Assembly (NCBI GenBank): GCA_902626505.1
Contig: CACOFQ010000006.1
Coordinates: 1,382-65,381 of the forward strand
Reading direction: 5' to 3'
Length of the DNA stretch: 64,000 nucleotides
Origin: an uncultured Marinoscillum sp.
GTDB lineage: Bacteria; Bacteroidota; Bacteroidia; Cytophagales; MED-G16
A program made the translations under genes and the position numbers. Below, piece by piece: positions 3,570 to 19,885 of the stretch (the first letter of the stretch is position 1; every line of letters begins with the position of its first letter). The notes under the pieces are model-generated. The model saw only the letters and a list, made by a program, of their open reading frames with translations, ran no database searches and had not been told where the DNA came from.

Positions 3570-4542
3570 TTTTATTTAATTTTTCTGCGATTTCTAAAGC
3601 ATGATATGAAATTATTGCACTCGCTCCAGCTCTTTTCATTGATATTAAAATTTCAAAAATAATGTCAAATCTTTCAATCCAATTATTTCCTGATGCAGCA
3701 GCTACCATTGAAAATTCGCCACTTACATTATAAGCAATGATTGGAATATTAAACTTTGCTTTAACCCTATTAATAATATCCAAATAAGACATTGCGGGTT
3801 TAATAATAACAGCATCAGCGCCTTCGTTAATATCTAGTTCAATTTCTCGCATAGCTTCAGATGAATTTTTAAAGTTCATCTGATAAGTTTTTCTGTCTCC
3901 ATGAGAAGGCGAGTTATTAGCTGCATCTCTAAATGGTCCATAAAATGCTGATGCATATTTTACACTGTACGAAAATATAGGTGTTTTTTGAAAACCATTT
4001 TTGTCTAATGATTCTCTAATATGTAATACCCTACCATCCATCATATCTGAAGGGGCTAATACATCTGCTCCCGCTTTAGCTAACGATATTGCCTGCTTAG
4101 TAAGGTTTTCTACTGTTGTATCATTATCAACGTCTCCGTCTATAATCGTGCCACAATGTCCGTGAGTTGTATACTGACAATTACAAAGGTCTGCAATCAC
4201 TAAAATTTCAGGATATTTTTTTTTTATAAATTTCAAAGCCGTTTGAATAATACCATTCGAATTATGGGAAACGTGTCCGTGTTCATCTTTTTTTTCGGGA
4301 ACACCAAATAAAATAATACTTCGTATTTTGTTAGAAATTATTTTATCAAAAATTTCTGGCAGCATATCAATGGAGAACTGAAATTGATTTGGCATTGACC
4401 TAATTTCTTTTTTTATATTTTTACCATCACAAACAAAAACAGGGTAAATCAGATCCTCAACGCGTAAATGTGTATCTTCCACCATATCACGAATTATTGA
4501 ATTGTATCTCAATCTTCTAAGTCTTACGTTAGGGTAACTCAT
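3562..4542 (-). CDS. hemB: Porphobilinogen synthase (Zn-binding Cys type)
   Basis: RLRRLR, DLCNCQYTTHGHCG, APSDMMDGR, KYASAFYGPFRDAA, IIKPAM, AYNVSGE. Confidence 0.97.
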   Translation of the reverse strand: MSYPNVRLRRLRYNSIIRDMVEDTHLRVEDLIYPVFVCDGKNIKKEIRSMPNQFQFSIDMLPEIFDKIISNKIRSIILFGVPEKKDEHGHVSHNSNGIIQTALKFIKKKYPEILVIADLCNCQYTTHGHCGTIIDGDVDNDTTVENLTKQAISLAKAGADVLAPSDMMDGRVLHIRESLDKNGFQKTPIFSYSVKYASAFYGPFRDAANNSPSHGDRKTYQMNFKNSSEAMREIELDINEGADAVIIKPAMSYLDIINRVKAKFNIPIIAYNVSGEFSMVAAASGNNWIERFDIIFEILISMKRAGASAIISYHALEIAEKLNKNV

Positions 4543-4544
4543 TG

Positions 4545-5258
4545 TTAACTTATTTTTAAATTAGAAATAATTGACTGTGAAATTCCTTCATAACTTTGCA
4601 TTTTAGAGGTAAAAAGAGGGTTAAAGCCTTTCTCTTTTATAAATGAAGAGGTAGTTTCTCCTATGCTAATAATTGATGTTTTAGATACATCATATAAATT
4701 TTGAAAGGATAGAAAGCAGGAGGGACTTGTAAACACTGTGTAGGTCTCTTTTTTATTTAATAATGATTCTAAATTTCTATTCACAATTTTTATAAGCTCT
4801 GTTTTATACGGTACAAATTTCGTTAAATAACAAATCAATTTCAGATTTTCAAACAAGTAATTTTTTGCTAAGTTCCCCTGCACTAGCATAACCTTCTTTG
4901 ATTCAAGTATTTTAATGCTTTTTAAATCATCAAATAGAATATTAGAATAGCTTCTTTTAGCAGTATAGACTGAATCAAGTTTTTGTTTTTTAAGCTCTAA
5001 AGCTGTTTTTGATCCAATACATATTGATTTCATTGATGATTTATCCTGTGATTTTATATTTTTATGATCAAAGAAATATTTTACTCCGTTTTTTGAAGTG
5101 AAAATGAAATAATCGAAGTCACTTAATAAAAATTCTAAGTCCTGACTATAAGGTAAAGTTTTAATCATGGGAAAATGAAAGGTTTTAATACCTTTTTCAT
5201 TTAACATATTGAACCCTTCGGTTTCACCGTCATTAGTCAAAATAACATTATACCCCAT
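4545..5258 (-). CDS. hemD: Uroporphyrinogen-III synthase
   Basis: FIFTSKNGV, CIGSKTA, FTSPS, SIGETT motifs; position between hemC and hemB. Confidence 0.88.
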   Translation of the reverse strand: MGYNVILTNDGETEGFNMLNEKGIKTFHFPMIKTLPYSQDLEFLLSDFDYFIFTSKNGVKYFFDHKNIKSQDKSSMKSICIGSKTALELKKQKLDSVYTAKRSYSNILFDDLKSIKILESKKVMLVQGNLAKNYLFENLKLICYLTKFVPYKTELIKIVNRNLESLLNKKETYTVFTSPSCFLSFQNLYDVSKTSIISIGETTSSFIKEKGFNPLFTSKMQSYEGISQSIISNLKIS

Positions 5259-5273
5259 AATTATTATTTATAA

Positions 5274-6194
5274 TTAACGAGTTCCAGCAAGTATATCATC
5301 TCCTCCATTATTTAAAATTTTATGAGCAAGATCAACGCCGATATTTTTATTAGAGTTATACTCCAATTCGAGTATTTTGGTTATGGCTTCATTACCATTT
5401 AAAGATAGAACGGTACCTTTTATAATTAATTTATTATTCTCTATTTTACAATACGCACCAATAGGAGACGTACAACCTCCTTTAAGAGTTTTTAAGAATA
5501 AACGTTCCTGAGAGACACAGACCCTGGTTTTCTCATGGTTTAATTGCGAAACCATTTCTTTAATTTCACCTTCATTTCTTGTTTCAACTGCAATAGCACC
5601 TTGACTAGGAGCATTAAGCATTTGATTATCATCAAAAAAATTACTAACTCTTTCTAACATATTGAGACGTTGCAATCCTGCAGCTGCCAGAACTAATCCA
5701 TCACAATAATTATTGTCCATTTTATGAATTCTAGTATCAATATTCCCCCTTATACTAATAACATTTAACGATGGGTTAAGTCGTAATATTTGAGCTTTTC
5801 GTCTATTAGACGAGGTTGCAATTACAGAATTTGGTTTTAATTTATCAAAAGGTATATTATTAGATGAAAGAAAGGAATCACGGTGATCTCCTCTTTTTAA
5901 TATAGCAGCATGAAATAAATGTGGGTTTGTATCTACAGGCAAATCCTTCAGGCTATGAACAGCTATATCAATTTCACCTTTAATTAAGCTTTCTTGTATT
6001 TCTTTTACAAAAAAACCTTTTTCAATGGATGATTCAAGGGGCTCAGTCAAGAACTTATCTCCTTTAGTAACAATTTTTTTTAATTTAAAGGTATTATCTG
6101 GAAATAGCTCTTTTAATTTATTTAGGACAAGATTGGTTTGATATAAAGCTAACTTACTGCCTCTAGTACCTAAAACAATTTCCTTACTCATCAT
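5274..6194 (-). CDS. hemC: Hydroxymethylbilane synthase (porphobilinogen deaminase)
   Basis: GTRGSKLALYQ, AVHSLKDLP, TSSNRR, IRGNIDTR, GGCTSPIG. Confidence 0.97.
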   Translation of the reverse strand: MMSKEIVLGTRGSKLALYQTNLVLNKLKELFPDNTFKLKKIVTKGDKFLTEPLESSIEKGFFVKEIQESLIKGEIDIAVHSLKDLPVDTNPHLFHAAILKRGDHRDSFLSSNNIPFDKLKPNSVIATSSNRRKAQILRLNPSLNVISIRGNIDTRIHKMDNNYCDGLVLAAAGLQRLNMLERVSNFFDDNQMLNAPSQGAIAVETRNEGEIKEMVSQLNHEKTRVCVSQERLFLKTLKGGCTSPIGAYCKIENNKLIIKGTVLSLNGNEAITKILELEYNSNKNIGVDLAHKILNNGGDDILAGTR

Positions 6195-7440
6195 TAAATA
6201 TCTTTTTAATCACCTTAAGAGCATCTTTATCTTTTCCATTATCACTCGCCAATCGAATTTTTTTGACCAGGTGATCTGACAACTTACTATATACTCTATT
6301 CATTTTAATTTTTAGACTCTCATCATCTATGTTTTCTAAGGATGATTTTAATTTCATATTATTCTGGATCAAAATTTTAATCTTATTTTTTATTGACAAA
6401 ATTGATGGTCGAAGTTGTCTAGAGTTTGACCATTCATCAAACTCAATTAAAAAACTATCTATAATTTTTTGTGACTTTGTAATTTCAGCTTTCCTTTTAT
6501 TATAATTCTGATTTACTATGTCTTTAAGGTTATCAATATTTATTAAGTCAATATTTCCAATAGTTGAAATATCGTCATCTATATTTCTTGGAACAGAGAG
6601 ATCAATAAACAGTAAATTTTTATTCATTTTAAGATCATATTTTTTTTCTATATCCTTTTTTGAAATGAGCGGCTTTTCAGAAGAGGTAGAAAACACAACT
6701 ATATCTACATCATTAATCTTACTATGCATCTGTTTATAGGGGATGGTTTTTAAACTATAGGTATCAGCAAACCTTTTACCCTTTAATTTAGTTCTATTCG
6801 TTATAATAATATCTTTAACATTTTTATTTAGAAGATGTTTTACTAGTAATTGAGATGTTTCTCCTGCTCCAACACAAAGAAAATTTGTTTTATGTAAATC
6901 ATATTTTTTTGATATCATCTCCACTGCAGCATAACTTACTGATATGGCGCCTTTTCCAATATCAGTATTAGACCTAACATATTTACCTGTTTCGAATGAT
7001 TTTTGAAACATCCTTTCCAAAATTGGTCCTAACAAATTTTTATCCTTTGCATAATAAAAAGCATCTTTAATCTGATCAACTATTTGAAACTCGCCAATTA
7101 TCATTGACTCTAAACCAGATATTAATCTAAATAAGTGTCTCGATACCTCCATAGAACCTGTCTTTGTAGCGACATATGGAGAAAGGCCTTCAGAGTATTT
7201 CTTATATTTTACTAAACATTTCATTATCAAATGAAATATCTTTTTTTCCTCACCGATATGATTTTCGTATTCGTAATAAAGTTCTGTTCTATTGCAAGTT
7301 GATAAAATCACTAATCCTTCTATTGGACATTCGGTGGATAAAAGATCAAAAAACTCCATTTTTTCACTATCCTGAAAATAAAATTTTTCTCTAACCTCAA
7401 TGGGAGAAGTTTTAAAATTTATACTAATTAGTCCTATCAA
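6184..7440 (-). CDS. hemA: Glutamyl-tRNA reductase
   Basis: STCNRTE catalytic Cys, SGLESMIIGEFQI, VGAGET, DLSVPRNI; TTG start. Confidence 0.96.
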   Translation of the reverse strand: MIGLISINFKTSPIEVREKFYFQDSEKMEFFDLLSTECPIEGLVILSTCNRTELYYEYENHIGEEKKIFHLIMKCLVKYKKYSEGLSPYVATKTGSMEVSRHLFRLISGLESMIIGEFQIVDQIKDAFYYAKDKNLLGPILERMFQKSFETGKYVRSNTDIGKGAISVSYAAVEMISKKYDLHKTNFLCVGAGETSQLLVKHLLNKNVKDIIITNRTKLKGKRFADTYSLKTIPYKQMHSKINDVDIVVFSTSSEKPLISKKDIEKKYDLKMNKNLLFIDLSVPRNIDDDISTIGNIDLINIDNLKDIVNQNYNKRKAEITKSQKIIDSFLIEFDEWSNSRQLRPSILSIKNKIKILIQNNMKLKSSLENIDDESLKIKMNRVYSKLSDHLVKKIRLASDNGKDKDALKVIKKIFNDE

Positions 7441-7454
7441 ACCTTAATTTTTTG

Positions 7455-7462
7455 CAAAGCTA
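7455..7462 (-). promoter_or_regulatory. Bacteroidota sigmaA -7 element (TAGCTTTG) for the hem operon
   Basis: Matches TAnnTTTG, 15 nt upstream of the hemA start. Confidence 0.6.
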
Positions 7463-7527
7463 AATCTAAAATTCTTGATGGGATAATAATTAATTGAGAA
7501 TTTTAAATAAGGAAATAATTAAAATTT

Positions 7528-7546
7528 GTTTAGAATAAATCTAAAC
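7528..7546. promoter_or_regulatory. Putative Fur box 1 (GTTTAGAATAAATCTAAAC)
   Basis: Perfect 7-5-7 inverted repeat in the divergent hemA / iron-uptake intergenic region; motif recurs upstream of other iron genes. Confidence 0.75.
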
Positions 7547-7591
7547 TAAAAAATATTATCCCCGTTAAGTAAAGAATAATTATGAATGTTT

Positions 7592-7610
7592 ATTTGGAAT
7601 TATTCTAAAT
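7592..7610. promoter_or_regulatory. Putative Fur box 2 (ATTTGGAATTATTCTAAAT)
   Basis: One mismatch from ATTTAGAATTATTCTAAAT; just upstream of a TATAATTG -7-like element of the DUF4856-like gene. Confidence 0.78.
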
Positions 7611-7654
7611 AGAAAATATAATTGCAGAATTATTTAATAAAAAACAATAATATA

Positions 7655-8809
7655 ATGAAAAATTTAAAACAGATATTGGTAATGTTTCTTGGTATTTTCT
7701 TATTTGCATGCGAAGACGATACTGAAGAAGTAGTAGAGGTAGTAGTTACTCCCCCTGCAACATATGCCTTTGAAAGAAATGGACAGAGCACTGTCTCATT
7801 TAGTGGCCAGTCAGCAAGACTTGAAATGGCAGCTGAATTGGGAACATGGCTAAATACGCCAATTAAGACAGCTGCAGATTTAGACGCGATGTTTAATGAT
7901 GGAACAGGATTTGGTAATCCTGCATTAGCTGCATCTGGTAAAAAGCTTGGAAATAAAACTGCTTCAAGTTCGATAGCATCTTCAACAGTAAAGCCTCAAT
8001 TTGACGCACTAATTGTAGATGTTACAACTAATGTTTTTCCTAATGTTGCAAACGATGCATCAGCCGGAACTCCTGGAACCTATACGGATGCCGGAGGAGG
8101 AAGGACTGTTATCATTAATGGGAAAGGACACGAAATCAATCAATTATTTATTAAAGGGTTAATGGGAGCTTTAGTATGTGATCAGATTATTTGGGGTTAC
8201 CTTTCTAAAGGAAAGCTTGACGGAGGGACAAATGTAGCAGATAATGACGCGGGAACTTTAGTAGATGGCAAAACATATACTCAAATGGAGCACTATTGGG
8301 ATGAAGGTTTTGGTTACTTATATGGACTAGACACTGACCTCACTACTGCTGAAGTTGAAAAAGGTTCATCTGGCGGAGATGTTCTTGTTAGTAAATACAT
8401 GAATAAGGTTAATACATCAAGCTTACCAGGTATTTCTCAAGAAATCTATGATGCATTTAAGCACGGAAGAGCAGCGATTGTTGCTGGGGCTTATGATGTA
8501 AGAGATGAACAAGCCGATATTGTGACTACTAAGTTATCACATATCATTGGCAGAAAGGCTGCTGATTATTTAAAAAGCGGTGCTGATAAAATAGATGCAG
8601 GAACTTGGGCTGATGCTCACCATGCATTATCAGAAGGATGGGGATTTATTCTTAGCCTTCAATTTACTAAAGACCCAAATACTGGATCACCTTACTATTC
8701 TAACTCTGAAGTTAATAGCATGTTATCTCAAATCGATGATTTCTGGACAGTTGCTCCAGCAGATCTTAGAAGTATGGCATCAAGTATTGAGTCAAAATTT
8801 GGATTTTAA
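7655..8809 (+). CDS. DUF4856-like iron-regulated surface lipoprotein
   Basis: Start moved to ATG 7655 (MKNLKQILVMFLGIFLFAC lipobox); TYAFERNGQSTVSFSGQSAR, MEHYWDEGFGY and HHALSEGWGF motifs as I recall them for this family. Confidence 0.75.
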   Translation: MKNLKQILVMFLGIFLFACEDDTEEVVEVVVTPPATYAFERNGQSTVSFSGQSARLEMAAELGTWLNTPIKTAADLDAMFNDGTGFGNPALAASGKKLGNKTASSSIASSTVKPQFDALIVDVTTNVFPNVANDASAGTPGTYTDAGGGRTVIINGKGHEINQLFIKGLMGALVCDQIIWGYLSKGKLDGGTNVADNDAGTLVDGKTYTQMEHYWDEGFGYLYGLDTDLTTAEVEKGSSGGDVLVSKYMNKVNTSSLPGISQEIYDAFKHGRAAIVAGAYDVRDEQADIVTTKLSHIIGRKAADYLKSGADKIDAGTWADAHHALSEGWGFILSLQFTKDPNTGSPYYSNSEVNSMLSQIDDFWTVAPADLRSMASSIESKFGF

Positions 8810-8869
8810 TGTCATTATTCTAAACATAGTTTAATATTTAGATTTTCAGTTTAATGTCAAAATTATCCT

Positions 8870-8901
8870 AACCAGTGTTGTAATTCAACACTGGTTTTTT
8901 T
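8870..8901 (+). terminator. Intrinsic terminator / 3' stabilising hairpin
   Basis: AACCAGTGTTG-TAATT-CAACACTGGTT 11-bp stem followed by a T run. Confidence 0.85.
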
Positions 8902-8942
8902 AGTTTCGTTCTAATTCATAATAATTATAAATAATAAAAAAA

Positions 8943-10046
8943 ATGAAAAAATTTCTTTTAAGTATTATAATGGTGTTCGGTATTATTTCATCGTGTAATG
9001 ACACTGACGAAGTCATAGTTGGGCCAACATTTGATAGATCAATACTTTTAAATAATTGGTTTAATAACCATATCAATCCAAGTTTAAATAATTTTTCAAA
9101 TGAACTTTCACAATTAAAGTCAGACTTCACCAGCGCTAAAAATAATGGAATAGATATAGTTAGTCTTGAAAAATTAAGAAATTCATATAAAAGCACATAC
9201 AAGGCTTGGCAGTATGTGGAAATGTTTAACATAGGTAAAGCCGAAGAAATTTATTACACTGCTACTGTAAACATATATCCAGTTAATACAACAAGGGTAG
9301 AATCAAATATTAGCTCAGGTGACTATAATTTAAATAATCCAAATAATTATCCAGCTCAGGGATTACCGACTATAGACTACATATTATTTGGAATAGGTTC
9401 AACAGACACAGAAATCTTAGAAAAACTCAAAGATGAAGGAAAATACATGAATTATCTATCTTCAATTATTGAGGAGATGTCATCCAATACATCAAAGGTA
9501 GTAACTGACTGGGAAACGTATAAGGCTGAGTTCTTGAGCTCAACTGACAATACTGCTACATCTGCTGTTAACATGATGGTAAATGACTTTATATTTTATT
9601 ATGAAAAGGGGTTTAGAGCAAACAAATTCGGAATACCCGCTGGAGTATTTTCTTCTGCACCAATACCTGAAAATGTAGAGGCTTATTATTCTGGATATTC
9701 AAAAGATTTATCAATTGAAGCAATGGGCGCAATAAAAGATTTGTTTATTGGGAGACATCCTTTCAATGGAACAGTATATTCTGGATCTAGTTTAAAATCA
9801 ATTTTATTAGATTTAGATTCCAATGAAGGTCAGAACAATCTAGCTAATAAAATTGAAAGTAAAATAGATGTTGCTATCAATAAAATTAATAGCCTAGAGG
9901 AGAATTATTATAATCAAATTCAAAATGATAATAATAAGTTTTTACAAACTTATGATGCCATTCAAGAAGTTGTTGTTCTATTAAAAGTTGATATGTTACA
10001 GCTACTAAGCATTAATGTTGACTATGTTGACGCCGACGGTGATTAG
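8943..10046 (+). CDS. Imelysin-family (Peptidase M75-like) lipoprotein
   Basis: Lipobox IISSC; AWQYVEMFNIG, NIYP, QGLPTIDYILFG, C-terminal DADGD typical of imelysin-like iron-regulated proteins. Confidence 0.85.
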   Translation: MKKFLLSIIMVFGIISSCNDTDEVIVGPTFDRSILLNNWFNNHINPSLNNFSNELSQLKSDFTSAKNNGIDIVSLEKLRNSYKSTYKAWQYVEMFNIGKAEEIYYTATVNIYPVNTTRVESNISSGDYNLNNPNNYPAQGLPTIDYILFGIGSTDTEILEKLKDEGKYMNYLSSIIEEMSSNTSKVVTDWETYKAEFLSSTDNTATSAVNMMVNDFIFYYEKGFRANKFGIPAGVFSSAPIPENVEAYYSGYSKDLSIEAMGAIKDLFIGRHPFNGTVYSGSSLKSILLDLDSNEGQNNLANKIESKIDVAINKINSLEENYYNQIQNDNNKFLQTYDAIQEVVVLLKVDMLQLLSINVDYVDADGD

Positions 10047-10057
10047 TTTAAAATGCT

Positions 10058-11419
10058 GTGATTAATAAATATTTAGAAGAATATACTCCATCATATACAT
10101 TAGCTTTTTATAGGATAGGTTTTGGCGCACTTATGTGCTATAGTATCATTAGGTTTTGGTATAAAGGTTGGATTGAAGAGCTATACATTAAACCTGAATT
10201 TCATTTTTCTTACTATGGTTTTGAATGGGCAAAACCCATTGGAGAATACACCTATCTCATATTTTTACTTTGCTTTATCGCCTCTTTTTTCGTAATGATA
10301 GGATTCAAATACAGGGCTTCTATTTTTTTGTTTTTCTTGAGCTTTACATACATTGAATTAATGGATAAAACCACCTATCTAAACCACTATTATTTTATTA
10401 GTATTTTAAGTTTCTTACTAATATTTCTCCCCGCAAACGCAACATTCTCAATAGACAACATTCTCAATAATAAGAAATTTAGGAATATTCCAAAATGGAA
10501 TGTAGATGCCCTAAAACTTATTATAACGATTGTATATTTATATGCTGGAATAGCTAAAATGAATTCAGATTGGTTGTTTGAGGCTATGCCACTAAAAATA
10601 TGGTTACAATCAAAATATGACCTTCCTCTAATTGGCGGAAACCTACTACAAATGAGTTGGGTACACTTTGCAATGAGCTGGGGAGGAATGTTATATGATA
10701 TTAGTATACCATTTTTGCTTATTATAAACAGAACCCGAATAATAGCATTTCTATTAGTTATTTTTTTCCATGTATTTACTCTTATTTTATTTCCAATTGG
10801 TATGTTTCCTCATATTATGATTTTCAGCTCAATGGTATTTTTTAGTAGTGATTTTCATAAAAAAATAATTAATAAGCTAAAGGATCTTTTAATGAAAATA
10901 GGCATTAAAAAAAAGTCAAATAAAACTAAGATTGTAGAGTTATATAAAACCCCAAGGTCAAAACTATCATTAACTTTAGTTACATCTTTTTTTATCATAC
11001 AAGCCCTTCTTCCGTTTCGCTATCAAATGTATCCTGGTGAACTTTTTTGGCATGAACAAGGGTACAGGTTCTCTTGGAGAGTGATGTTAATAGAAAAGAT
11101 TGGATATACAAATTTCAAAATTAAAAATCCAAAAACAGGTACAAGCTTTATGGTAGATAGCTCTGAATTTCTTACCCCATTTCAACTAAAACAAATGAGT
11201 TTTCAACCCGATTTCATACTAGAGTTTGCTCATTATCTTGGAAAAAAATATTCTACAAAAAACAATTCAGTTGAAGTTTACGCAGACAGTTTTGTTGCCC
11301 TTAATGGAAGGCCAAGCAAAAGATTTATTGATCCTGACACTAATTTGTATAAAGAAAAAGAGTCCTTTAGAAATAAAACTTGGATATTACCACTAGAAGA
11401 TGAGATTAAAGGAATATAA
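10058..11419 (+). CDS. HTTM-domain / vitamin K-dependent gamma-glutamyl carboxylase homologue, membrane protein
   Basis: LAFYRIGFG, DKTTYLNHYY, YAGIAKMNSDW, FHVFTLILFPIGMFP, GYRFSWRVML, LNGRPSKRFIDP; multiple TM helices; GTG start. Confidence 0.88.
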   Translation: MINKYLEEYTPSYTLAFYRIGFGALMCYSIIRFWYKGWIEELYIKPEFHFSYYGFEWAKPIGEYTYLIFLLCFIASFFVMIGFKYRASIFLFFLSFTYIELMDKTTYLNHYYFISILSFLLIFLPANATFSIDNILNNKKFRNIPKWNVDALKLIITIVYLYAGIAKMNSDWLFEAMPLKIWLQSKYDLPLIGGNLLQMSWVHFAMSWGGMLYDISIPFLLIINRTRIIAFLLVIFFHVFTLILFPIGMFPHIMIFSSMVFFSSDFHKKIINKLKDLLMKIGIKKKSNKTKIVELYKTPRSKLSLTLVTSFFIIQALLPFRYQMYPGELFWHEQGYRFSWRVMLIEKIGYTNFKIKNPKTGTSFMVDSSEFLTPFQLKQMSFQPDFILEFAHYLGKKYSTKNNSVEVYADSFVALNGRPSKRFIDPDTNLYKEKESFRNKTWILPLEDEIKGI

Positions 11420-13826
11420 ATTTATTTTACTAATTATAATAGTGTCTTTTAATGTAGTTAAAGGGCAAAATAAAGTATATGGATTAATAGAAATTGAAGA
11501 AGATGGATTTTCAAATGATGAGGTTTTTATCTATGATGGAAATAATAAGTTTTTAACGACTACAAACAAAGAGGGATACTATGAGTTTTTTACCGATAAA
11601 ACTCAAATGAATATAATCTTCTTATTGGTAGGGTCACAATATGTGCAGAAAGAAGTTAATATATCTAAGGACACAGAAATAAATATAGTATTTGAGAAAA
11701 AAACACAAATTCTTTCTGAGGTTTTAATTAAAGGATATAAAATTAGAGAATTCCAGCTAAAAAGATTGAAAGATGTCGAGGGAACCTCGATTTTTGCAGG
11801 TAAAAAATCTGAAGTCATTTTAGTAGATCAGTCAATGGCAAACTTAGCCTCAAATAATGCTAGGCAAATATATAACCAGATTTCAGGACTAAATATTTAC
11901 CAAAATGATGATGCGGGAATTCAGCTACACATTGGGGGAAGAGGACTAGACCCGAATAGAACGTCAAACTTCAACACAAGACAAAATGAATATGATATAA
12001 GCGCTGATGTTCTAGGATATCCCGAAAGTTATTATACTCCTCCATCAGAAGCAATTAAAGAGATTCAAATAGTTAGAGGAGCAGCTTCGCTACAGTATGG
12101 AACACAATTTGGAGGGTTAATTAATTTTATTATGAAAGAGCCCACAAATAAAAAAATAGAATTTATAACGAGAAACACTATTGGTAGTAATAAACTCTTT
12201 ACAAATTTTTCAAGCTTAGGTGGAACCAACAAAAACTTCAGCTATTATACATATTACAATTATAAAATTGGTGATGGATTTAGAAATAATTCAGATTTTA
12301 TATCAAACAATTTATATACACATTTAGGATATAAAATTGGTGATAAAACAAAAATTTCAGGTGAAATATCATATCTAAATTATTTAGCTCATCAGGCTGG
12401 CGGACTATCAGATAGAATGTTTTCAATAGATCCTCTGCAAAGTAATAGATCTAGGAATTGGTTTGGACTAGATTGGTTACTATTTAACTTAAAGATTAAA
12501 CACAAGTTTGATAGTAATTCAAATTTATCATTAAACTTTTTTGGACTTGACGCAGAGAGAAATAGTATAGGGTTTAGAAGTAATAGAGTTGACCAAGTAG
12601 ATCCATTTACTGAACGAGATCTGATTAAAGGAAAGTTCAATAATCATGGCCTTGAAATAAAGTTTTTAAATAATTATAATTTTTTAAATAGAAAAAATGT
12701 GTTTGTAATTGGTGGAAAATATTATAAGTCGAAATCAACTAGCAAACAAGGTCCAGGATCAAATTTAGAAAATGCTGATTTTAACTTTTACATAGAAGAA
12801 TACCCTAATTATACTAATCAGTCTGACTATATATATCCAAATAAAAATCTAGCCTTATTTGGTGAAAACATACTTTATTTAACAGATAAAATATCTCTAA
12901 CTCCTGGTTTTAGATATGAAAATATTTTAACTAAAAGTAGAGGTTCGTTTAAACAAATTAATCTTGACGCAGCTGGAAATGTAATATATAATAACACTAC
13001 GTATGAGAATCAGAATAATAGAAGGGCATTTTTCTTATTTGGTTTAGGTTTTAGCTTTAAAACACCAAAAGATATTGAACTATACTCTAATATTTCTCAA
13101 AATTACAGATCTGTAACATTTGCAGATATAAGTATAATTAACCCATCATATGCTATTAACCCAAATATCTCAGACGAGAAAGGTATAACTATTGATCTTG
13201 GTTTAAGGGGTGAGATAAAAGATGTGATATCACTTGATCTAACATTATTCAATTTATTATATAAGAATAGGATTGGGTTTAGACAAAAGGAATTTAAAGA
13301 CGGAAGTGTTAAAAGCGAGAGAGGAAATATTGGTGATGCGTCAATCTATGGATTAGAGTCTAACATAGATTTTGATATCAATAATTTGATAATCAATAAT
13401 GATAATATGAGCTTAAACTATTTTATAAATACAGCATTAATTGATTCTAAATATTTAAGTTCATATATCAACGGTGTTGAAGGGAAAAAGGTAGAATTTG
13501 TTCCAAATATTAATTTAAAAACTGGCGTAAAGTTTGGGTTTAGTAATTTCATCTTTAATATTCAATATAGTTTTATATCAAAACAGTTTACAGATTCATC
13601 TAATGCCTTGGAAGGTAATTTAAGCGGAATCATTGGGCAAATACCAGAATACCAGTTATTGGATATTAGTTTATCTTACTTAATCAGAAATTTTAGATTT
13701 GAAACAGGAGTAAATAATGCAATAAACTCCTTATACTTTACACGAAGGGCAACTGGATATCCAGGTCCAGGCATAATTCCTTCACCTCCAAGAAATTTTT
13801 ATTTGACATTTCAAATAAAAATATAA
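11400..13826 (+). CDS. TonB-dependent outer-membrane receptor (FecA-like)
   Basis: Signal peptide, N-terminal carboxypeptidase-regulatory-like segment, plug motifs GGRGLDPNR and IQIVRGAASLQYG, C-terminal PRNFYLTFQIKI strand. Confidence 0.92.
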   Translation: MRLKEYKFILLIIIVSFNVVKGQNKVYGLIEIEEDGFSNDEVFIYDGNNKFLTTTNKEGYYEFFTDKTQMNIIFLLVGSQYVQKEVNISKDTEINIVFEKKTQILSEVLIKGYKIREFQLKRLKDVEGTSIFAGKKSEVILVDQSMANLASNNARQIYNQISGLNIYQNDDAGIQLHIGGRGLDPNRTSNFNTRQNEYDISADVLGYPESYYTPPSEAIKEIQIVRGAASLQYGTQFGGLINFIMKEPTNKKIEFITRNTIGSNKLFTNFSSLGGTNKNFSYYTYYNYKIGDGFRNNSDFISNNLYTHLGYKIGDKTKISGEISYLNYLAHQAGGLSDRMFSIDPLQSNRSRNWFGLDWLLFNLKIKHKFDSNSNLSLNFFGLDAERNSIGFRSNRVDQVDPFTERDLIKGKFNNHGLEIKFLNNYNFLNRKNVFVIGGKYYKSKSTSKQGPGSNLENADFNFYIEEYPNYTNQSDYIYPNKNLALFGENILYLTDKISLTPGFRYENILTKSRGSFKQINLDAAGNVIYNNTTYENQNNRRAFFLFGLGFSFKTPKDIELYSNISQNYRSVTFADISIINPSYAINPNISDEKGITIDLGLRGEIKDVISLDLTLFNLLYKNRIGFRQKEFKDGSVKSERGNIGDASIYGLESNIDFDINNLIINNDNMSLNYFINTALIDSKYLSSYINGVEGKKVEFVPNINLKTGVKFGFSNFIFNIQYSFISKQFTDSSNALEGNLSGIIGQIPEYQLLDISLSYLIRNFRFETGVNNAINSLYFTRRATGYPGPGIIPSPPRNFYLTFQIKI

Positions 13827-13867
13827 TTATTTAATATAAAAGATATATTTAAATTATATTAGCTGTT

Positions 13868-13886
13868 ATTTAAATTCATTCTAAAT
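13868..13886. promoter_or_regulatory. Putative Fur box 3 (ATTTAAATTCATTCTAAAT, extended by TGTT...AACA)
   Basis: Palindrome ending 7 nt before the start codon of the DUF6607-like gene. Confidence 0.7.
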
Positions 13887-13893
13887 AACAATA

Positions 13894-14814
13894 ATGATAA
13901 GATATGTCTTGATTTTATTTTTAATAATACCACTTTCCCTTTCGGCAAATAAAAAAAAGAAAAAAGATATAGAGGCAATTAAAGGTATGTGTGGGTGCAT
14001 GGATATCAAATTTGAATTTGCAGAAACAGTTTCTCCTAAAAAGGAATATAATTTTTATAAAAATTATTTATCAGGAGGAAGAGAGCTTGCCTTTATAGCA
14101 GAGGAAACCCCTAATAAATTGGTAATTCAGCATATTCTTGTGATAATGGATACTATGGTTATAAAGCACTGGAGACAAGACTGGATTTATGAGGGTGAGA
14201 CGATGTTTATTTACGATAAAGACCAGAAATGGGTTAAAAAAAGCCTAGCTAAAAAAGAAAGAAAAGGAAAATGGATTCAAAAAGTATATCAGGTAGATGA
14301 TAGCCCACGATATGAAGGTATTGGGACGTGGATTATGGTAGATGGGAAAACGTATTGGGAGAGTACATCAGACGCTCCTTTGCCTAGAAGAGAGTATAGT
14401 AAAAGAAGTGATTACAACGTATTAAAAAGAGGTAATAGACATGAAATAAAAGATTTTGGATGGGTTCATGAACAAGATAATGTTAAGATCATGAGAGGAG
14501 ATGAAGATGAAATTATTGCTGAAGAAAAAGGTTGGAATACCTATAAGAGGATAAATGAATCAAACTGCCAAGCAGCAATCGATTGGTGGAAAGAAAATAA
14601 AAATTATTGGAGACATGTAAGGACAGTATGGGATGAAAATTTTAAGGAAAAGAATGTAGTTTCACTTTATTCACAAATAAATAAGAGGCCTATGTTTAGC
14701 GAGTTTTTTGAACTAGGAAGCAAAGTTGAAGGTAAGGCTTCAGAAATTATTTCTGATGAAACAGAACTTATCAAAAATATTAAAACAATTATTGAAAAAT
14801 ATTCAAAAGAATAA
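13894..14814 (+). CDS. DUF6607-like secreted protein
   Basis: Signal peptide; AIKGMCGC, IKHWRQDW, YQVDDSPRY, PLPRREYSKRSDY, WVHEQDN motifs; iron-locus context. Confidence 0.7.
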   Translation: MIRYVLILFLIIPLSLSANKKKKKDIEAIKGMCGCMDIKFEFAETVSPKKEYNFYKNYLSGGRELAFIAEETPNKLVIQHILVIMDTMVIKHWRQDWIYEGETMFIYDKDQKWVKKSLAKKERKGKWIQKVYQVDDSPRYEGIGTWIMVDGKTYWESTSDAPLPRREYSKRSDYNVLKRGNRHEIKDFGWVHEQDNVKIMRGDEDEIIAEEKGWNTYKRINESNCQAAIDWWKENKNYWRHVRTVWDENFKEKNVVSLYSQINKRPMFSEFFELGSKVEGKASEIISDETELIKNIKTIIEKYSKE

Positions 14815-15780
14815 TTATTTAAAAAAATTCTTACATACTGGATCAAAATAAATCAGATCTTTTTTAGCAAAATCAACATATACATGTTTTTTTTCTGAAA
14901 TTGGCTTTTTAGAGAAGAAATGCCAAATCTCATTATCGAACCTTCCCTTAATTCTATATTCCTTACCTTGAAAGAAGCATTTTTCAACAGAAACTTTGTA
15001 ATTAGATTTTTTATTTACGTGTTTTATGTTTTCAGGCCTAACATAATACGTTTCATTACCAATAAAGAGTTTATTCATATCACCAAGAATTTCTGCACAA
15101 TAACAATTTGCAGGCTCACAATACATTTTAACTGGATTATCGTACTGCTGAAGTATTCCTGCTTTAAAAATTAATATTTTATCAGATATATTCATTGCAT
15201 CATTAATATCATGTGTTACTAAAATTGTTGTGGTATTAGTTTCTTTTACAATTTTAAAAATTTCCTCTTTCATTGATTCTTTTATAGTTGAGTCTAAATT
15301 ACTAAAGGGCTCATCAAGAAGAAGAAGTTCAGGCTCTCTGATTAATGCCCTAGCAATACATGCTCTTTGTTGTTCGCCTCCTGATAACTCATGAGGAAAT
15401 CTTTTTAAGAAATATTTTAACCCTGTTAATTTAAGAATGTATTCTAATTTAGAATAATATTTTTTTTCGAGATTAAACGTAATGTTTTCTTCTAAATTTA
15501 AATGTGGAAAAAGAGGGTAATCCTGAAAAACAAAACCGATTTTTCTTTCTTGAGGTTTAACAAAAATATTATTTTTATTAAGGTATTTAGAATTAAGTGT
15601 TATAGTCCCTGAATTAATTTTTTCTAGTCCAGATATACACTTTAAAAATGTAGTTTTTCCTGAGCCACTTTCTCCTAAGAACGAAATAAGTTCTCCTTTT
15701 TTCACTGAGAATGACAGATCTTTAATTATAGGATATTTACTGTCAAAAAACTTAACAAGATTTTTTACTTCAAGATACAT
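14815..15780 (-). CDS. fbpC: Fe3+ ABC transporter ATP-binding subunit (FbpC/FutC-like)
   Basis: GESGSGKT, FQDYPLFPH, LSGGEQQR, LLLDEPF; operon with permease and FutA. Confidence 0.85.
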   Translation of the reverse strand: MYLEVKNLVKFFDSKYPIIKDLSFSVKKGELISFLGESGSGKTTFLKCISGLEKINSGTITLNSKYLNKNNIFVKPQERKIGFVFQDYPLFPHLNLEENITFNLEKKYYSKLEYILKLTGLKYFLKRFPHELSGGEQQRACIARALIREPELLLLDEPFSNLDSTIKESMKEEIFKIVKETNTTTILVTHDINDAMNISDKILIFKAGILQQYDNPVKMYCEPANCYCAEILGDMNKLFIGNETYYVRPENIKHVNKKSNYKVSVEKCFFQGKEYRIKGRFDNEIWHFFSKKPISEKKHVYVDFAKKDLIYFDPVCKNFFK

Positions 15781-17365
15781 TTATTTGCTTATCAATAAAA
15801 CTCCTCAAAATTAATAACATCAAACTTCCTAATGTAATAATTACAAGAGAATATATTGCAGAGAGGGGTATCATTTCCTCAATTGCAAACTGATACGTTT
15901 GAGTTGCTAAAGTATCAAAATTAAAAGGACTAAGTATTAATGTAATAGGTAGCTCTTTCATAACATCAATAAAAGTCACAACAAAAGCACTAATTAAAGC
16001 AAACTTATTAATTGGCAAGTGTAATCTTCTTAATAGATTTAATGGATTTAAACCTAAATTTCTGCCTGTATCATCTATTGTTATGGGATGTTTATCTATA
16101 CTAGATTTGATAGGAGATTTAGCTACAGCAAGAAATCGAATTAAATATGCAAAAATAAGAACATAAAAAGTTCCTAAAAGAGAAGAATTACTAAATAGTA
16201 GAATAACCCCTAGACCTATTATAGCTCCAGGTAATGCATACCCTAATGATATCAAACTACTCACATAAGAATTTATTTTCGAATTTGATATTCTTTCAAC
16301 AAAAAGAAAAAATAGAGCAATAAAAATTATAATTATAGATGATAATGAGGAAACATAAATAGTATTGTTAGTTAATCGAAAAAGTTTATCAAAGTTTGTA
16401 ATAGCAAACGATTCAATAGTGTTATTTAAAATAAAAGAAAAGGGAATTAAAAAACCAAATAAAAAAGGAATTGAACAAATTAAAATAACCATTAAAGCTC
16501 TTGAACCTCCTAGACCTTTTACTTTATTCAACTGAGTATTTTTTTGATAATAAAACTTTGATTTACTCATTGAAAATCTATCAATTGCAAAAAAACACAA
16601 TACTACTAGCAACAAAATACATGCAAGTTGAATTGCACCATTAACATCTCCAAATGAATTCCAAGACCTAAAAATTCCAATTGTAAAGGTATTTACCCCA
16701 AAGTATTTAACCGCTCCATATTCATTTAATACCTCCATTATTACTAAAAACAAACCTGAAAAAATCGCAGGTCTGGATAATGGAAGTATGACTTTAAAAA
16801 AAGTTTGAATTTTCGATAACCCTAAGTTGCGTGATATATTAATATAATTAGAACCTATAAGACTAAAGGAAATTCTGGATGCGGTATATATATAAGGGTA
16901 TAAAGCTAACCCCAACAAAATTCCTAGTATCTCTACTTGTAAATAATCTCTGTTTATAATTTCAGCAAAAAAAGGACTTCTTTCTCTAAAAAAACTTTGT
17001 ATTGGTCCAGTATAACTTAATATATCTATATATGTAAAACCCATAATATACGAAGGTATAGCCAATGGAAGGTAAAGAACTATATCAAAGAAATTTCTCC
17101 CAAGAAAAGTATAATTGCTAATTATCCAAGCAGGAATTATTCCTAAAAATAATGCAGTTATAGAGGTTATAAGAATTAAATATAAAGTATTTAAGGTATA
17201 ATCAAACAACAAATTATCAAGTAGATATAGTAAAGTATCTGTGGTACCAGAAAAAAAATTTATAATTAAAATAATTACAGGAGCAAGTAAAATTATTGCA
17301 AAAATTACACTGCCAAAAACCCATCTTTTATTTTCAATAGCAAAAAAACGATGTATTATTTCCAA
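15770..17365 (-). CDS. fbpB: Fe3+ ABC transporter permease (FbpB/FutB-like)
   Basis: Duplicated TM domain; PLAIPSY, LPLSRPAI, EYGAVKYFGV, MKELPITLILSPFNFDTLA. Confidence 0.88.
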   Translation of the reverse strand: MEIIHRFFAIENKRWVFGSVIFAIILLAPVIILIINFFSGTTDTLLYLLDNLLFDYTLNTLYLILITSITALFLGIIPAWIISNYTFLGRNFFDIVLYLPLAIPSYIMGFTYIDILSYTGPIQSFFRERSPFFAEIINRDYLQVEILGILLGLALYPYIYTASRISFSLIGSNYINISRNLGLSKIQTFFKVILPLSRPAIFSGLFLVIMEVLNEYGAVKYFGVNTFTIGIFRSWNSFGDVNGAIQLACILLLVVLCFFAIDRFSMSKSKFYYQKNTQLNKVKGLGGSRALMVILICSIPFLFGFLIPFSFILNNTIESFAITNFDKLFRLTNNTIYVSSLSSIIIIFIALFFLFVERISNSKINSYVSSLISLGYALPGAIIGLGVILLFSNSSLLGTFYVLIFAYLIRFLAVAKSPIKSSIDKHPITIDDTGRNLGLNPLNLLRRLHLPINKFALISAFVVTFIDVMKELPITLILSPFNFDTLATQTYQFAIEEMIPLSAIYSLVIITLGSLMLLILRSFIDKQINVS

Positions 17366-18378
17366 CCGGTTCTATCAAATATTTTTAACGCTTCAGGCCT
17401 AAATTCACCTAGTGCATTTAAATTTAATTTGTCAATTTTAAAATCCCCCCAACTTTTTACAATATCTGAAGGCTCAACTAAGGAATTAGCAGGATATTCA
17501 TAACTATTATTGACATAAACTTCCTGAGCTTCCTGACTTGTAAGATACTCAATTAATTTAATTGCATTTTCTTTATTAGGTGAACTCTTAGTTAGTCCAA
17601 TTGCAGATATATTAATGTGACTTCCACGTTCACCAACTCCTTGATTTGGGAAAAAAACGGATACTGAATTACCAGCATTTAACTCTTCTTCTTTCTCAGA
17701 AGATAATAATAGCCCAATATAATAGGAGTTTACAATAGCAATATCTCCTTGTCCTGCAGCAATAGCTTTTACTTGATCTCTATCACTACCTTTAGGGTCT
17801 CGCGCAAAATTACTTACAACTGCAGAAGACCAGTCCTCAGTATTTTCAACTCCGAGGTTGGCCACTAGAGATGACATTAATGCTTGATTATATGCATTAG
17901 ATGATGATCTTACTAATATTCTATTTTTCCATTTTGGATCAGCTAAATCTTCATATGTACTAAGGTCGGATTCTTTTACTCTCTCTTTACTATAAACAAT
18001 AACTCTTGACCTATAAGTTATTGGAGCCCAAAACTCATCAGGGTCTCTTAAATCAGTTAGAATATTTTTATTAATATTTTGAGATTCAATTTTTTGTAAA
18101 ACACCAGCCTCCCTTGCGTTATACAATTTACCAGCATCTACCGTGACAAAGAGGTCTGCTGGAGAATTGTCACCTTCATTTTTTAATCTTTCAATCAATT
18201 GATCCGCATTAGCTTTTACCACATTAACCTTAATTCCTGTTTTCTCGGTAAAATTTTTATATTGTAATTCATCAACAGCATAATGCCTTTGGCTATATAA
18301 GTTAACTTCTCGTATAGATTCTTGATTAGTTGAACAAGCTGATATAATAAAGGTAAATAATAATAAAAATTTTCTCAT
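17356..18378 (-). CDS. futA: Fe3+ ABC transporter substrate-binding lipoprotein (FutA/FbpA-like)
   Basis: Lipobox ISAC; YSQRHY, RSSSNAYNQ, NSYY tyrosine ligands, SPADLFVTVDAG. Confidence 0.88.
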   Translation of the reverse strand: MRKFLLLFTFIISACSTNQESIREVNLYSQRHYAVDELQYKNFTEKTGIKVNVVKANADQLIERLKNEGDNSPADLFVTVDAGKLYNAREAGVLQKIESQNINKNILTDLRDPDEFWAPITYRSRVIVYSKERVKESDLSTYEDLADPKWKNRILVRSSSNAYNQALMSSLVANLGVENTEDWSSAVVSNFARDPKGSDRDQVKAIAAGQGDIAIVNSYYIGLLLSSEKEEELNAGNSVSVFFPNQGVGERGSHINISAIGLTKSSPNKENAIKLIEYLTSQEAQEVYVNNSYEYPANSLVEPSDIVKSWGDFKIDKLNLNALGEFRPEALKIFDRTGWK

Positions 18379-18386
18379 AATATGTT

Positions 18387-18405
18387 ATTTAGATTAATTC
18401 TAAAC
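18387..18405. promoter_or_regulatory. Putative Fur box 4 (ATTTAGATTAATTCTAAAC)
   Basis: Palindrome 8 nt upstream of the futA start, in the futA/fumC divergent region. Confidence 0.78.
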
Positions 18406-18496
18406 TGCAATTAAATAAATAATTATGTAAAAACAAATCAAGTCATTGATGAATCTTGCTAAACAAAAGATATTTATATTTAATTTTATATTAAAT

Positions 18497-19885
18497 ATGA
18501 AAGAAAGAACTGAAAAAGATTCAATTGGAAATATCCTTGTTGACTCTGAAAAATACTGGGGGGCACAAACACAAAGGTCTTTACAGAATTTTGATATTGG
18601 GTTTGAGAAAATGCCATGGGAAATAATAGAAAGTTTTGCGGTATTAAAAATGGCAGCAGCAGAAACAAATTATGATTTAGGTGTTTTAGATAGGAAAAAA
18701 ATGGAAGTTATAGTAGGGGTATGTGGAGAGATAATTGATGGAAAACTAATGGATCATTTTCCATTATCAGTGTGGCAAACTGGATCAGGAACACAATCAA
18801 ATATGAATGTAAATGAGGTGATAGCTAATAGAGCACATGTGGTTATGGGCGGAAAGCTAACTGACAAAATAAAAAAAATACACCCAAATGATGATGTAAA
18901 CAAATCTCAATCATCAAACGACACATTTCCAACTGCAATGAACATGTCAGCATATCATTTACTAAGCAGCTATACAATTCCATGTATAGAGAGTTTAGCT
19001 AAAGAAATAAAAAATAAATCAAGAGAATTTAAAAATATTGTAAAAATAGGAAGAACTCATTTTATGGATGCAACTCCTCTTACATTAGGAATGGAGTTTA
19101 GCGGATACTCTACACAACTTGAAAACTCAATTAAAAATATAAAAGAATCACTTAATCACCTTTCAGAATTAGCTTTAGGTGGTACAGCAGTAGGAACCGG
19201 ACTTAATACTCCAAAGGGGTATTCTAAGTTGGTAGCAGAAAAAATTTCAGAGATAACAGGTTATAATTTTAAATCCGCCAAGAATAAATTTGAAGCTCTA
19301 GCAGCAAATGATGCTATGGTAAAGGCGTCTGCAGCACTAAAAGGTTGTGCAGTTGCATTAATGAAAATAGCTAATGATATAAGAATGCTATCATCTGGAC
19401 CGAGAAGTGGTATAGGAGAAATTATTTTACCAGCTAATGAACCCGGATCCTCAATTATGCCAGGAAAAGTAAACCCCACACAATGTGAGGCAGTAACTAT
19501 GGTCTGTTCACAAGTTATGGGAAATGATGTGGCCGTTACAATTGGTGGAATGAGTGGACATTTCGAACTAAATGTTTTCAAACCAATGATTGCGCATAAT
19601 GTTTTAAACTCAGCGAGATTACTTGGGGATGTAGCCGCTTCATTTAGTCAAAACTGTATAATTGGAATCAAAGCAAATTCATCAGAAATACAAGAAAAAC
19701 TTGATAAATCATTAATGTTAGTAACAGCTTTAAACACTCATATAGGGTACGATAATGCTGCAAAAATTGCAAAAAAAGCACATAAAGAAGGCCTGACCTT
19801 AAAAGAGGCTGCTCTAAAATTAAAATTAGTTTCTGAAAAAGACTTTGATAAGTGGGTTGATCCAAAAAAGATGATTGGAAAATAA
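18497..19885 (+). CDS. fumC: Class II fumarate hydratase
   Basis: [42 protein letters not shown]; start moved to ATG 18497. Confidence 0.97.

Follow-up and report, generated by a model that had tools for sequence, protein, structure and literature searches.

Fur-regulated gene cassettes of the form imelysin/DHOR (DUF1111)/imelysin-like have been described in Pseudomonas aeruginosa (PA4370-PA4373) and Vibrio cholerae (VC1264-VC1266) (Xu et al. 2011, PMC3143127). In Riemerella anatipestifer, the genes RAYM_09779-09794 are given in Table 4 of a Fur-regulon paper as TonB receptor, 'vitamin K-dependent gamma-carboxylase', imelysin lipoprotein and hypothetical protein, and all four have iron-restricted/iron-replete expression ratios of 2.1 to 3.1 by RNA-seq (PMC5609570). 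The human vitamin K-dependent carboxylase GGCX uses Lys218 as catalytic base together with Trp223 and Asp263, and its Glu/CO2 site is formed by Asn159, His160, Phe299 and Tyr395; these residue roles are taken from PMC12647623. For one bacterial HTTM enzyme, MloH of an antibiotic pathway, carboxylation of an aspartyl residue has been reported (as cited by PMC12647623 and a bioRxiv preprint). Described here is a locus at positions 7655-14814 of a 64,000-nucleotide stretch of contig CACOFQ010000006.1 from an uncultured Marinoscillum sp., the whole stretch being called the window. A DUF4856 lipoprotein (g1), an imelysin-like lipoprotein (g2), an HTTM enzyme homologue (g3) and a TonB-dependent receptor (g4) follow one another in it and very probably form an iron-regulated uptake module, a variant of the known imelysin iron cassettes.

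A sequence-only reading of this DNA had proposed an iron-regulated module of HTTM, imelysin-type and receptor genes. That much stands; two further parts of the reading, the membership of the DUF6607 gene (g5) and the assumed use of menaquinone, do not. Bacterial vitamin K carboxylase homologues are numerous, and MloH is the sole one named with a role in the searched literature. The module offers a concrete handle on bacterial HTTM function, the gene being fixed in an iron-starvation operon with intact-looking catalytic residues and a predicted protein partner. The working of imelysin cassettes, unsolved since 2011, is addressed as well.

Conserved gene order

Gene content, gene order, Fur-like boxes, catalytic residues and the conserved protein tail were computed. 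Five plus-strand open reading frames (ORFs), all co-oriented, fill the interval (coordinates in Table 1), in agreement with the sequence-only reading, and the overlap that it noted between HTTM and the receptor start amounts to 20 nt. The gap between g2 and g3 is 11 nt.

The VKGC lumenal domain was searched in 301 sampled Bacteroidota genomes. It is present in 63 of them, with 75 matches including that of the window. About 19 kb around the other 74 matches were taken, and ORFs were labelled with profiles grown from the window proteins. The order DUF4856>imelysin>HTTM>receptor on one strand was found at 44 of the 74 loci, and an imelysin-like gene lies directly 5' of HTTM at 53. One more locus is broken by a contig end, and about 20 stand in other contexts. 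A second sample consisted of the best 80 loci among genome contigs, mostly from named marine Flavobacteriaceae with some Balneolales-like and Cytophagales-like sequences. Three loci with masked letters inside the HTTM frame were left out, and the four-gene order is present at 68 of the 77 that could be scored. The linkage of HTTM, imelysin-like and receptor genes is thus recurrent, as the sequence-only reading had stated, and the module is widespread in marine Bacteroidota.

The DUF6607 gene behaves differently from the four. It was found at none of the 74 loci of the first sample and at one of the 80 of the second (L084, the nearest named relative, which has the layout of the window), and its product is of the RhuH haemophore type instead. 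The FutABC genes and hemA adjoin the module in only a few small marine genomes. The conserved unit therefore consists of four genes, and the remainder is a local gathering of iron genes.

Recurrent flanks of the module in Flavobacteriaceae were considered as further parts of it and rejected. Those tested were LysE, HMGL-like, IMPDH, a weak GDSL-lipase match, PD40, AhpC/TSA and DUF6029; because they are housekeeping genes or unrelated to iron, they are read as inherited gene order. No biosynthetic genes recurring in the module were seen among the recurrent flanks tested (LysE, HMGL-like, IMPDH).

In the literature searched, subscription journals lying outside the search, no paper joining HTTM and imelysin was found, DUF4856 and DUF6607 were not found, and the module was met only as the RNA-seq table rows of PMC5609570. 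A search for R. anatipestifer together with imelysin otherwise yielded only an outer-membrane vesicle proteome.

The HTTM enzyme

The product of g3 matches PF05090 with 248 bits and PF22777 with 188 bits (cut-off 27.7 each) and aligns to residues 59-506 of human GGCX with an E value of 1e-44, which bears out its earlier description as a GGCX homologue. Residues N109, H110, K167, W172, D214, F250 and Y336 correspond to N159, H160, K218, W223, D263, F299 and Y395 of GGCX. The first six are invariant in all 54 module copies; the equivalent of Y395 is Tyr in 43, Phe in 10 and Cys in one. Among 21 HTTM copies outside the module this last place is taken by His in 15, the other catalytic residues being kept. 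By these residues g3 appears to be a catalytically intact GGCX homologue. Its catalytic face would point toward the periplasm, by homology with GGCX. The family is large, with 4709 clusters at 50% identity matching at E values up to 0.001, and marine relatives of g3 are 70-80% identical to it.

A second class of proteins with HTTM and lumenal domain, 31-37% identical to g3, lies among housekeeping genes in the constant order ribF>HTTM>serS>TPR>DUF4286. The ribF>HTTM>serS context was seen at seven loci (L041, L043, L048, L051, L055, L056 and L061).

The imelysin-like protein, a predicted partner

In the motif of g2 a Pro replaces the His (G140-x-P-x-x-D145), and the motif aligns with the His-less G-I-P-G-L-E of Psychrobacter IPPA. 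The IPPA structure 3pf0 is matched from end to end, with an E value of 1.8e-25, by a profile built from 37 g2 orthologues. From the full-length match and the His-less motif, g2 is assigned to the IPPA/PA4372 type. A lipobox is present in g1 and g2 of nearly all orthologues.

The protein ends in D365-G366-D367. The same DGD ending is found in 129 of 129 imelysin-like proteins encoded next to HTTM, that of the window included, and in three of 23 encoded away from it. These three are a copy three genes from HTTM (L085), a copy beside DHOR in genome G172 and a copy in genome G239, where the VKGC lumenal domain was not found. IPPA (3pf0) also ends in DGD, and its last six residues are disordered in the crystal. 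Since IPPA shares the ending, the tail marks the whole IPPA-type family and not the link to HTTM. In the AlphaFold2 model of the single g2 chain (predicted local distance difference test, pLDDT, 91.0) helical structure stops after residue 355, and the final block is coil with a pLDDT of 52.

Complexes of HTTM with mature g2 were predicted from an alignment of 37 rows for each protein, together with three controls. The HTTM/g2 runs scored 0.72, 0.73 and 0.71 and the best control 0.00. At least 77% of contacts are shared between the runs, and the pLDDT of the partner is at least 85. In calibration the score accepted 58 of 80 solved complexes and two of 110 mismatched pairs, a guide that is rough here, own alignments having been used. 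The structure prediction that the sequence-only reading had listed as a check thus favours the pair. On the HTTM side the contacts include residues 106, 108-110, 245-250 and 342-343 with 346-350, and in the lumenal domain 362-367 and 412-420. Contacts 106/108-110, 245-250 and 342-343/346-350 fall at the positions of loops LL3, LL7 and LL9 of GGCX, which make up its Glu pocket in the account of PMC12647623. The g2 side contributes residues 234-239 and 344-356 and the tail 358-366, among others.

In the predicted complex g2 sits on the periplasmic face of HTTM. We know of no solved complex of the HTTM/imelysin-like kind; complexes of GGCX with peptides exist and could bias the model. A direct partnership of the two proteins, predicted in this way, is judged somewhat more probable than the contrary.

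Probable regulation by iron

The Fur-regulon paper of R. anatipestifer predicts a 19-nt Fur box, and electrophoretic mobility shift assays supported the box on four other promoters (PMC5609570). This consensus, itself a prediction, was searched in the window on both strands with up to three mismatches, against 100 shuffles. Eight strand matches at five sites were obtained; the mean of the shuffles was 0.55, and none of the 100 reached eight. The three palindromic boxes pointed out in the sequence-only reading match this predicted Fur box and so lie beyond chance. All five sites fall within the iron-gene locus of about 11 kb, and the whole 1.55-Mb assembly holds 29 such sites, including these five. 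A Fur gene is present in the genome. Genes of the futA and fumC types, between which one of the sites lies, are classic iron-uptake or iron-sparing targets in other bacteria.

The same box, with at most three mismatches and at most 200 nt 5' of the gene, precedes the g1 orthologue at 32 of 46 loci; among other ORFs of these loci, 23 of 916 have it. Upstream of the other genes it was found at 8 of 55 loci for g2, 1 of 76 for g3 and 0 of 52 for g4, the start of each ORF being taken as that of the longest frame. Iron regulation is thus backed by the boxes of the window, by those upstream of the g1 orthologues and by the RNA-seq data for the R. anatipestifer look-alikes, whose likeness to g4-g1 was judged by product names and consecutive locus tags, not by sequence.

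Because a terminator-like hairpin follows g1 and both g2 and g5 have boxes of their own, the five genes are not regarded as one transcription unit. Translation of g1 most likely begins at 7655 (ATG), and the product then has a lipoprotein signal ending in ...LFAC; the longest frame opens at a TTG at 7622. A scan for sigma-70 promoters gave 47 sites against 44.5 expected and is uninformative, the promoters of Bacteroidota being of a different type.

Metatranscriptome contigs from four marine runs of one study are near-identical to g1 over 7756-8868, with few differences. They end at 8830-8868, shortly before the hairpin, and only short pieces fall on g2-g4. Such contigs record presence only and can neither rank genes nor prove transcription.

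The sole perfect match to the consensus in the genome is at L002:3380-3398 (= G000:C3:65379), 79 nt 5' of a multihaem cytochrome c gene, L002:2018-3301 on the minus strand. By its position, this site suggests that Fur may also control an iron-rich respiratory complex.

DUF4856 lipoprotein and receptor

Six residues of g1 are invariant in 37 orthologues: G141, K167, Y248, Y305, H323 and E327. A Tyr/Tyr/His/Glu set of this type would presumably suit Fe(III). The AlphaFold2 model of g1 has a pLDDT of 91.8 and a predicted TM-score of 0.88. A Foldseek search of the PDB with the model gave no match at E 0.001 or below (best E 0.37, query-normalised TM-score 0.13), and a protein atlas search gave one unnamed cluster at 0.82. 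Two assignments were considered and rejected. Kinship of DUF4856 with imelysin, as a second imelysin of the module, reached an unconvincing 63% probability over 69 columns in a profile comparison with hhalign, and the match to the NCBIfam 'FEA1-related lipoprotein' was too weak, at 16.8 bits where the cut-off is 250.

The acid-rich start of mature g1 (CEDDTEEVVEVVV) was considered as a Gla-like target. It is rejected, orthologues being rich in Asp, Asn and Ser there and Glu not being conserved. Should there be a protein substrate, the C-terminal tail of g2 is the better candidate. Stretches of this composition resemble the signal for surface export of lipoproteins in Bacteroidota.

The receptor g4 consists of a signal peptide, a CarboxypepD_reg-like domain, plug and barrel. 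Among solved structures FecA is closest to it, and its best matches are receptors of siderophore and ferric-dicitrate type, under the curated cut-offs.

Proposed mechanism and alternatives

The best explanation of the locus as a whole, put forward tentatively, is a Fur-repressed outer-membrane iron-acquisition operon in which HTTM modifies its imelysin-like partner. Both lipoproteins would be exported and would receive their lipid on the periplasmic side of the inner membrane. There HTTM would bind the imelysin-like protein, with the flexible ...D-G-D tail at or near the catalytic pocket, and would modify it, most likely by a carboxylation of an acidic residue, driven by quinol and O2, that yields a malonate-type metal chelator. 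The lipoproteins and the receptor would capture iron and hand it on, and in this genome the neighbouring FutABC would move Fe(III) over the inner membrane. In this scheme the direction of topology, the substrate, the chemistry and the exposure of the lipoproteins at the surface are what we infer. Taken by itself, carboxylation of the imelysin-like protein by HTTM is doubtful. A more specific form of the idea is frankly speculative: HTTM would carboxylate an aspartate of the DGD tail to beta-carboxy-aspartate, a malonate-type chelator of Fe(III) or Ca, and the di-iron hydroxylase of a sister cassette would make beta-hydroxy-aspartate on the same tail. If this were true, the beta-carboxy-aspartate tail would in effect be a protein-borne siderophore group. 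In that case a bacterial homologue of the vitamin K carboxylase would for the first time have a protein substrate and a physiological role, and iron uptake would gain a new kind of post-translational chemistry.

A number of observations weigh against modification by carboxylation. A Leptospira orthologue is reported to carry out vitamin K epoxidation with carboxylase activity undetected. The DGD tail is not specific to HTTM: Psychrobacter IPPA 3pf0, from a di-haem-type cluster, has it, as do the copies of G172 and G239, and the tail may serve whichever enzyme is the partner, so that a redox role would suit it no less than modification. The placing of the tail in the pocket is an interpretation of two residue lists, with no pair list for the tail. 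Doubt also attaches to the quinone. VKOR, which was not found in this genome, occurs in 50 of the 301 genomes, 6 of the 63 with HTTM and 44 of the 238 others; because it is rarely found with HTTM, a canonical vitamin K cycle is not generally present. Of 13 genomes from the genus of the window (completeness 54-95%), none gave a MenB match above cut-off; such a match was obtained in seven of eight other families of the order. The MenB-like match in this genome is a crotonase-like protein under the cut-off, the MenD-like match is an acetolactate synthase (ilvB), and the MenA-like match is a PAS-fused UbiA-family protein under the cut-off (86 bits vs 264). MqnA was not found in the 89% complete assembly, a completeness at which absence of the menaquinone genes is not proven. 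The general use of menaquinone by Bacteroidota, which the sequence-only reading had taken as established, is therefore not a given here. A multihaem cytochrome of the alternative-complex-III kind is nevertheless encoded in the genome. Complexes of this kind work on quinol, so some quinone is expected.

The PAS/UbiA fusion is a protein of 445 aa with an N-terminal PAS domain, encoded at L082:4317-5654 on the minus strand (L082 being G000:C10:43500-50284).

Carboxylation has a close rival in a pure redox role, itself possible at a like level of doubt. HTTM would then modify no protein and would, on the periplasmic side, use membrane quinol and O2 to oxidise or reduce iron on the imelysin-like protein, perhaps at its acidic tail, in the place of DHOR or a di-iron oxygenase. 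The neighbourhoods of related genes speak for such an exchange. A di-haem DHOR gene adjoins canonical imelysins of the same phylum at all five loci tested; these imelysins score much higher against Pfam and lack DGD. In G172 (L175, G172:C2:1988086-2001696) a DGD-tailed imelysin-like gene lies beside DHOR and a canonical imelysin, and another locus of that genome (L045) has an isolated HTTM of the module type, 54% identical to g3. In G239 an operon without HTTM, at 3334-9455 on the minus strand of L168 (G239:C16:52691-66000), has the order FA_hydroxylase-family membrane protein>DUF4856>imelysin(DGD)>receptor. The genome of the window has no match to DHOR (PF06537) in its 89% complete assembly, and its two FA_hydroxylase genes are located away from the locus. 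The suggestion of the sequence-only reading that HTTM stands in the place of DHOR is consistent with these data. All 54 module copies keep the residues for quinol deprotonation (equivalents of K218, W223 and D263), the predicted HTTM/g2 complex is equally compatible with a redox partner, and the tail shared with IPPA fits as well. However, the equivalents of N159, H160 and F299, which handle the substrate carboxylate and CO2, are invariant too and would be needless for a pure quinol oxidase. The HTTM fold has no known metal site, and GGCX chemistry is not known to pass electrons to metals. The doubtful quinone supply applies to this role equally.

That HTTM acts on a small molecule or lipid, such as a chelator precursor or a membrane lipid, or is a scaffold or chaperone for lipoprotein maturation, with the lipoproteins its neighbours by regulation only, is quite unlikely. 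The substrate of MloH is a biosynthetic intermediate, not a protein (cited in PMC12647623 and in the preprint), and the HTTM paralogues of the seven ribF>HTTM>serS loci point to roles outside iron uptake. Against this stand the tight coupling of g2 and g3, separated by 11 nt here and in constant order at 129 loci, the complex prediction, which beats its controls, and the lack of recurring biosynthetic genes in the module among the flanks tested.

Import of haem or of another metal instead of inorganic iron is very improbable: a RhuH-type gene does lie directly 3' of the receptor here and in L084, hemA and hemC lie upstream, and Fur family regulators and imelysin-like proteins are linked to other metals as well, but the haemophore gene is absent from the other 74 sampled HTTM loci and has its own box, the best matches of the receptor are of siderophore and ferric-dicitrate type though under curated cut-offs, and the adjoining ABC system is of the ferric FutA/FbpA type.

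Neighbouring iron genes

The features of the locus are listed in Table 1.

Table 1. Genes and sites of the iron-gene locus, in positions of the window
Feature	Positions	Strand	Assignment and remarks
hemC	5274-6194	-	divergent from g1 across the Fur-box region
hemA	6184-7440	-	divergent from g1 across the Fur-box region
Fur-box-like palindrome	7528-7546		3 mismatches; hemA/g1 intergenic region
Fur-box-like palindrome	7592-7610		1 mismatch; 44 nt 5' of g1 ATG
g1	7655-8809	+	DUF4856 lipoprotein; Pfam DUF4856 E 2.5e-92
Terminator-like hairpin with T run	8870-8896	+	3' of g1
Fur-box-like site	8914-8932		3 mismatches; upstream of g2
g2	8943-10046	+	IPPA-type imelysin-like lipoprotein; Peptidase_M75/imelysin (PF09375) E 1.2e-25
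g3	10058-11419	+	membrane enzyme homologue; HTTM E 1.2e-73, VKGC lumenal domain E 1.6e-55
g4	11400-13826	+	TonB-dependent receptor; barrel E 3.2e-25, Plug E 2.5e-05
Fur-box-like site	13868-13886		3 mismatches; upstream of g5
g5	13894-14814	+	RhuH-family haemophore, by similarity; Pfam DUF6607 E 2.1e-106
FutC-like ATPase	14815-15780	-	part of ferric-iron ABC importer (14815-18378)
FutB-like fused double permease	15770-17365	-	same ABC importer
FutA-like binding protein	17356-18378	-	same ABC importer; 6g7n E 1.1e-102, 2pt1 E 5.3e-98, FbpA 1q35 E 7.7e-73
Fur-box-like site	18387-18405		2 mismatches; between futA and fumC
fumC	18446-19885	+	class II (iron-free) fumarase; divergent from futA

RhuH of R. 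anatipestifer and three homologues are reported in PMC11967795 to bind haem, to extract it from haemoglobin and to be under Fur-box control; the haem ligand of RhuH is His96, and its propionate contacts are R143, Y144, R170, R183 and Q198. The product of g5 matches RhuH (PDB 8xjc) with an E value of 1.4e-81. Its H92 corresponds to the ligand His96, and the propionate contacts are conserved. By sequence, then, g5 is a RhuH-type haemophore, a neighbour of the module and not a member. The FutABC ferric importer and fumC, which share a Fur-like box, complete a local iron island. Since the genome is streamlined to 1.55 Mb and FutABC and the haemophore adjoin the module, the module is likely a main route of iron supply for these bacteria.

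hemA is also found beside the module in L084, L113, L114 and L149; in the window genome hemC is present too.

Comparison with known systems

The gene for RhuH and g5 each have a Fur box. They differ in setting: the R. anatipestifer gene lies beside rhuR-rhuA and g5 beside the receptor of the HTTM module, and R. anatipestifer is an animal pathogen whereas the organism of the window is a free-living marine bacterium.

Human GGCX (PDB 9l20, 9bvk) shares with g3 the HTTM membrane domain and the first lumenal domain. It is longer, with 758 residues against 453, and its C-terminal 250 residues are without counterpart in g3. The places of R436 and H440 are taken by Gln in g3, in a part where the alignment is gappy. 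Unlike human GGCX, g3 belongs to an operon for iron uptake and does not co-occur with VKOR, and no propeptide-like substrate was seen for it.

By annotation, the R. anatipestifer genes RAYM_09779-09794 repeat the four-gene set and its order, and their expression rises under iron restriction. In PMC5609570 they appear only as rows of the RNA-seq table, and the carboxylase-like gene is undiscussed there.

The cassettes PA4370-PA4373 and VC1264-VC1266 have in common with the window an iron-regulated, exported IPPA/PA4372-type lipoprotein whose motif has Pro where His would stand and whose sequence ends in DGD, and in all of them the imelysin-like gene adjoins an oxygen- or peroxide-using enzyme. 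The window differs in having HTTM instead of DHOR, a single imelysin-like gene, and a DUF4856 lipoprotein and a TonB receptor as fixed members. The di-iron-type cassette of G239 has the same two lipoproteins and receptor, a protein of the FA_hydroxylase family replacing HTTM. Across these systems the DGD-tailed imelysin-like protein appears to be the constant part, and the di-haem, di-iron or HTTM enzyme the exchangeable one.

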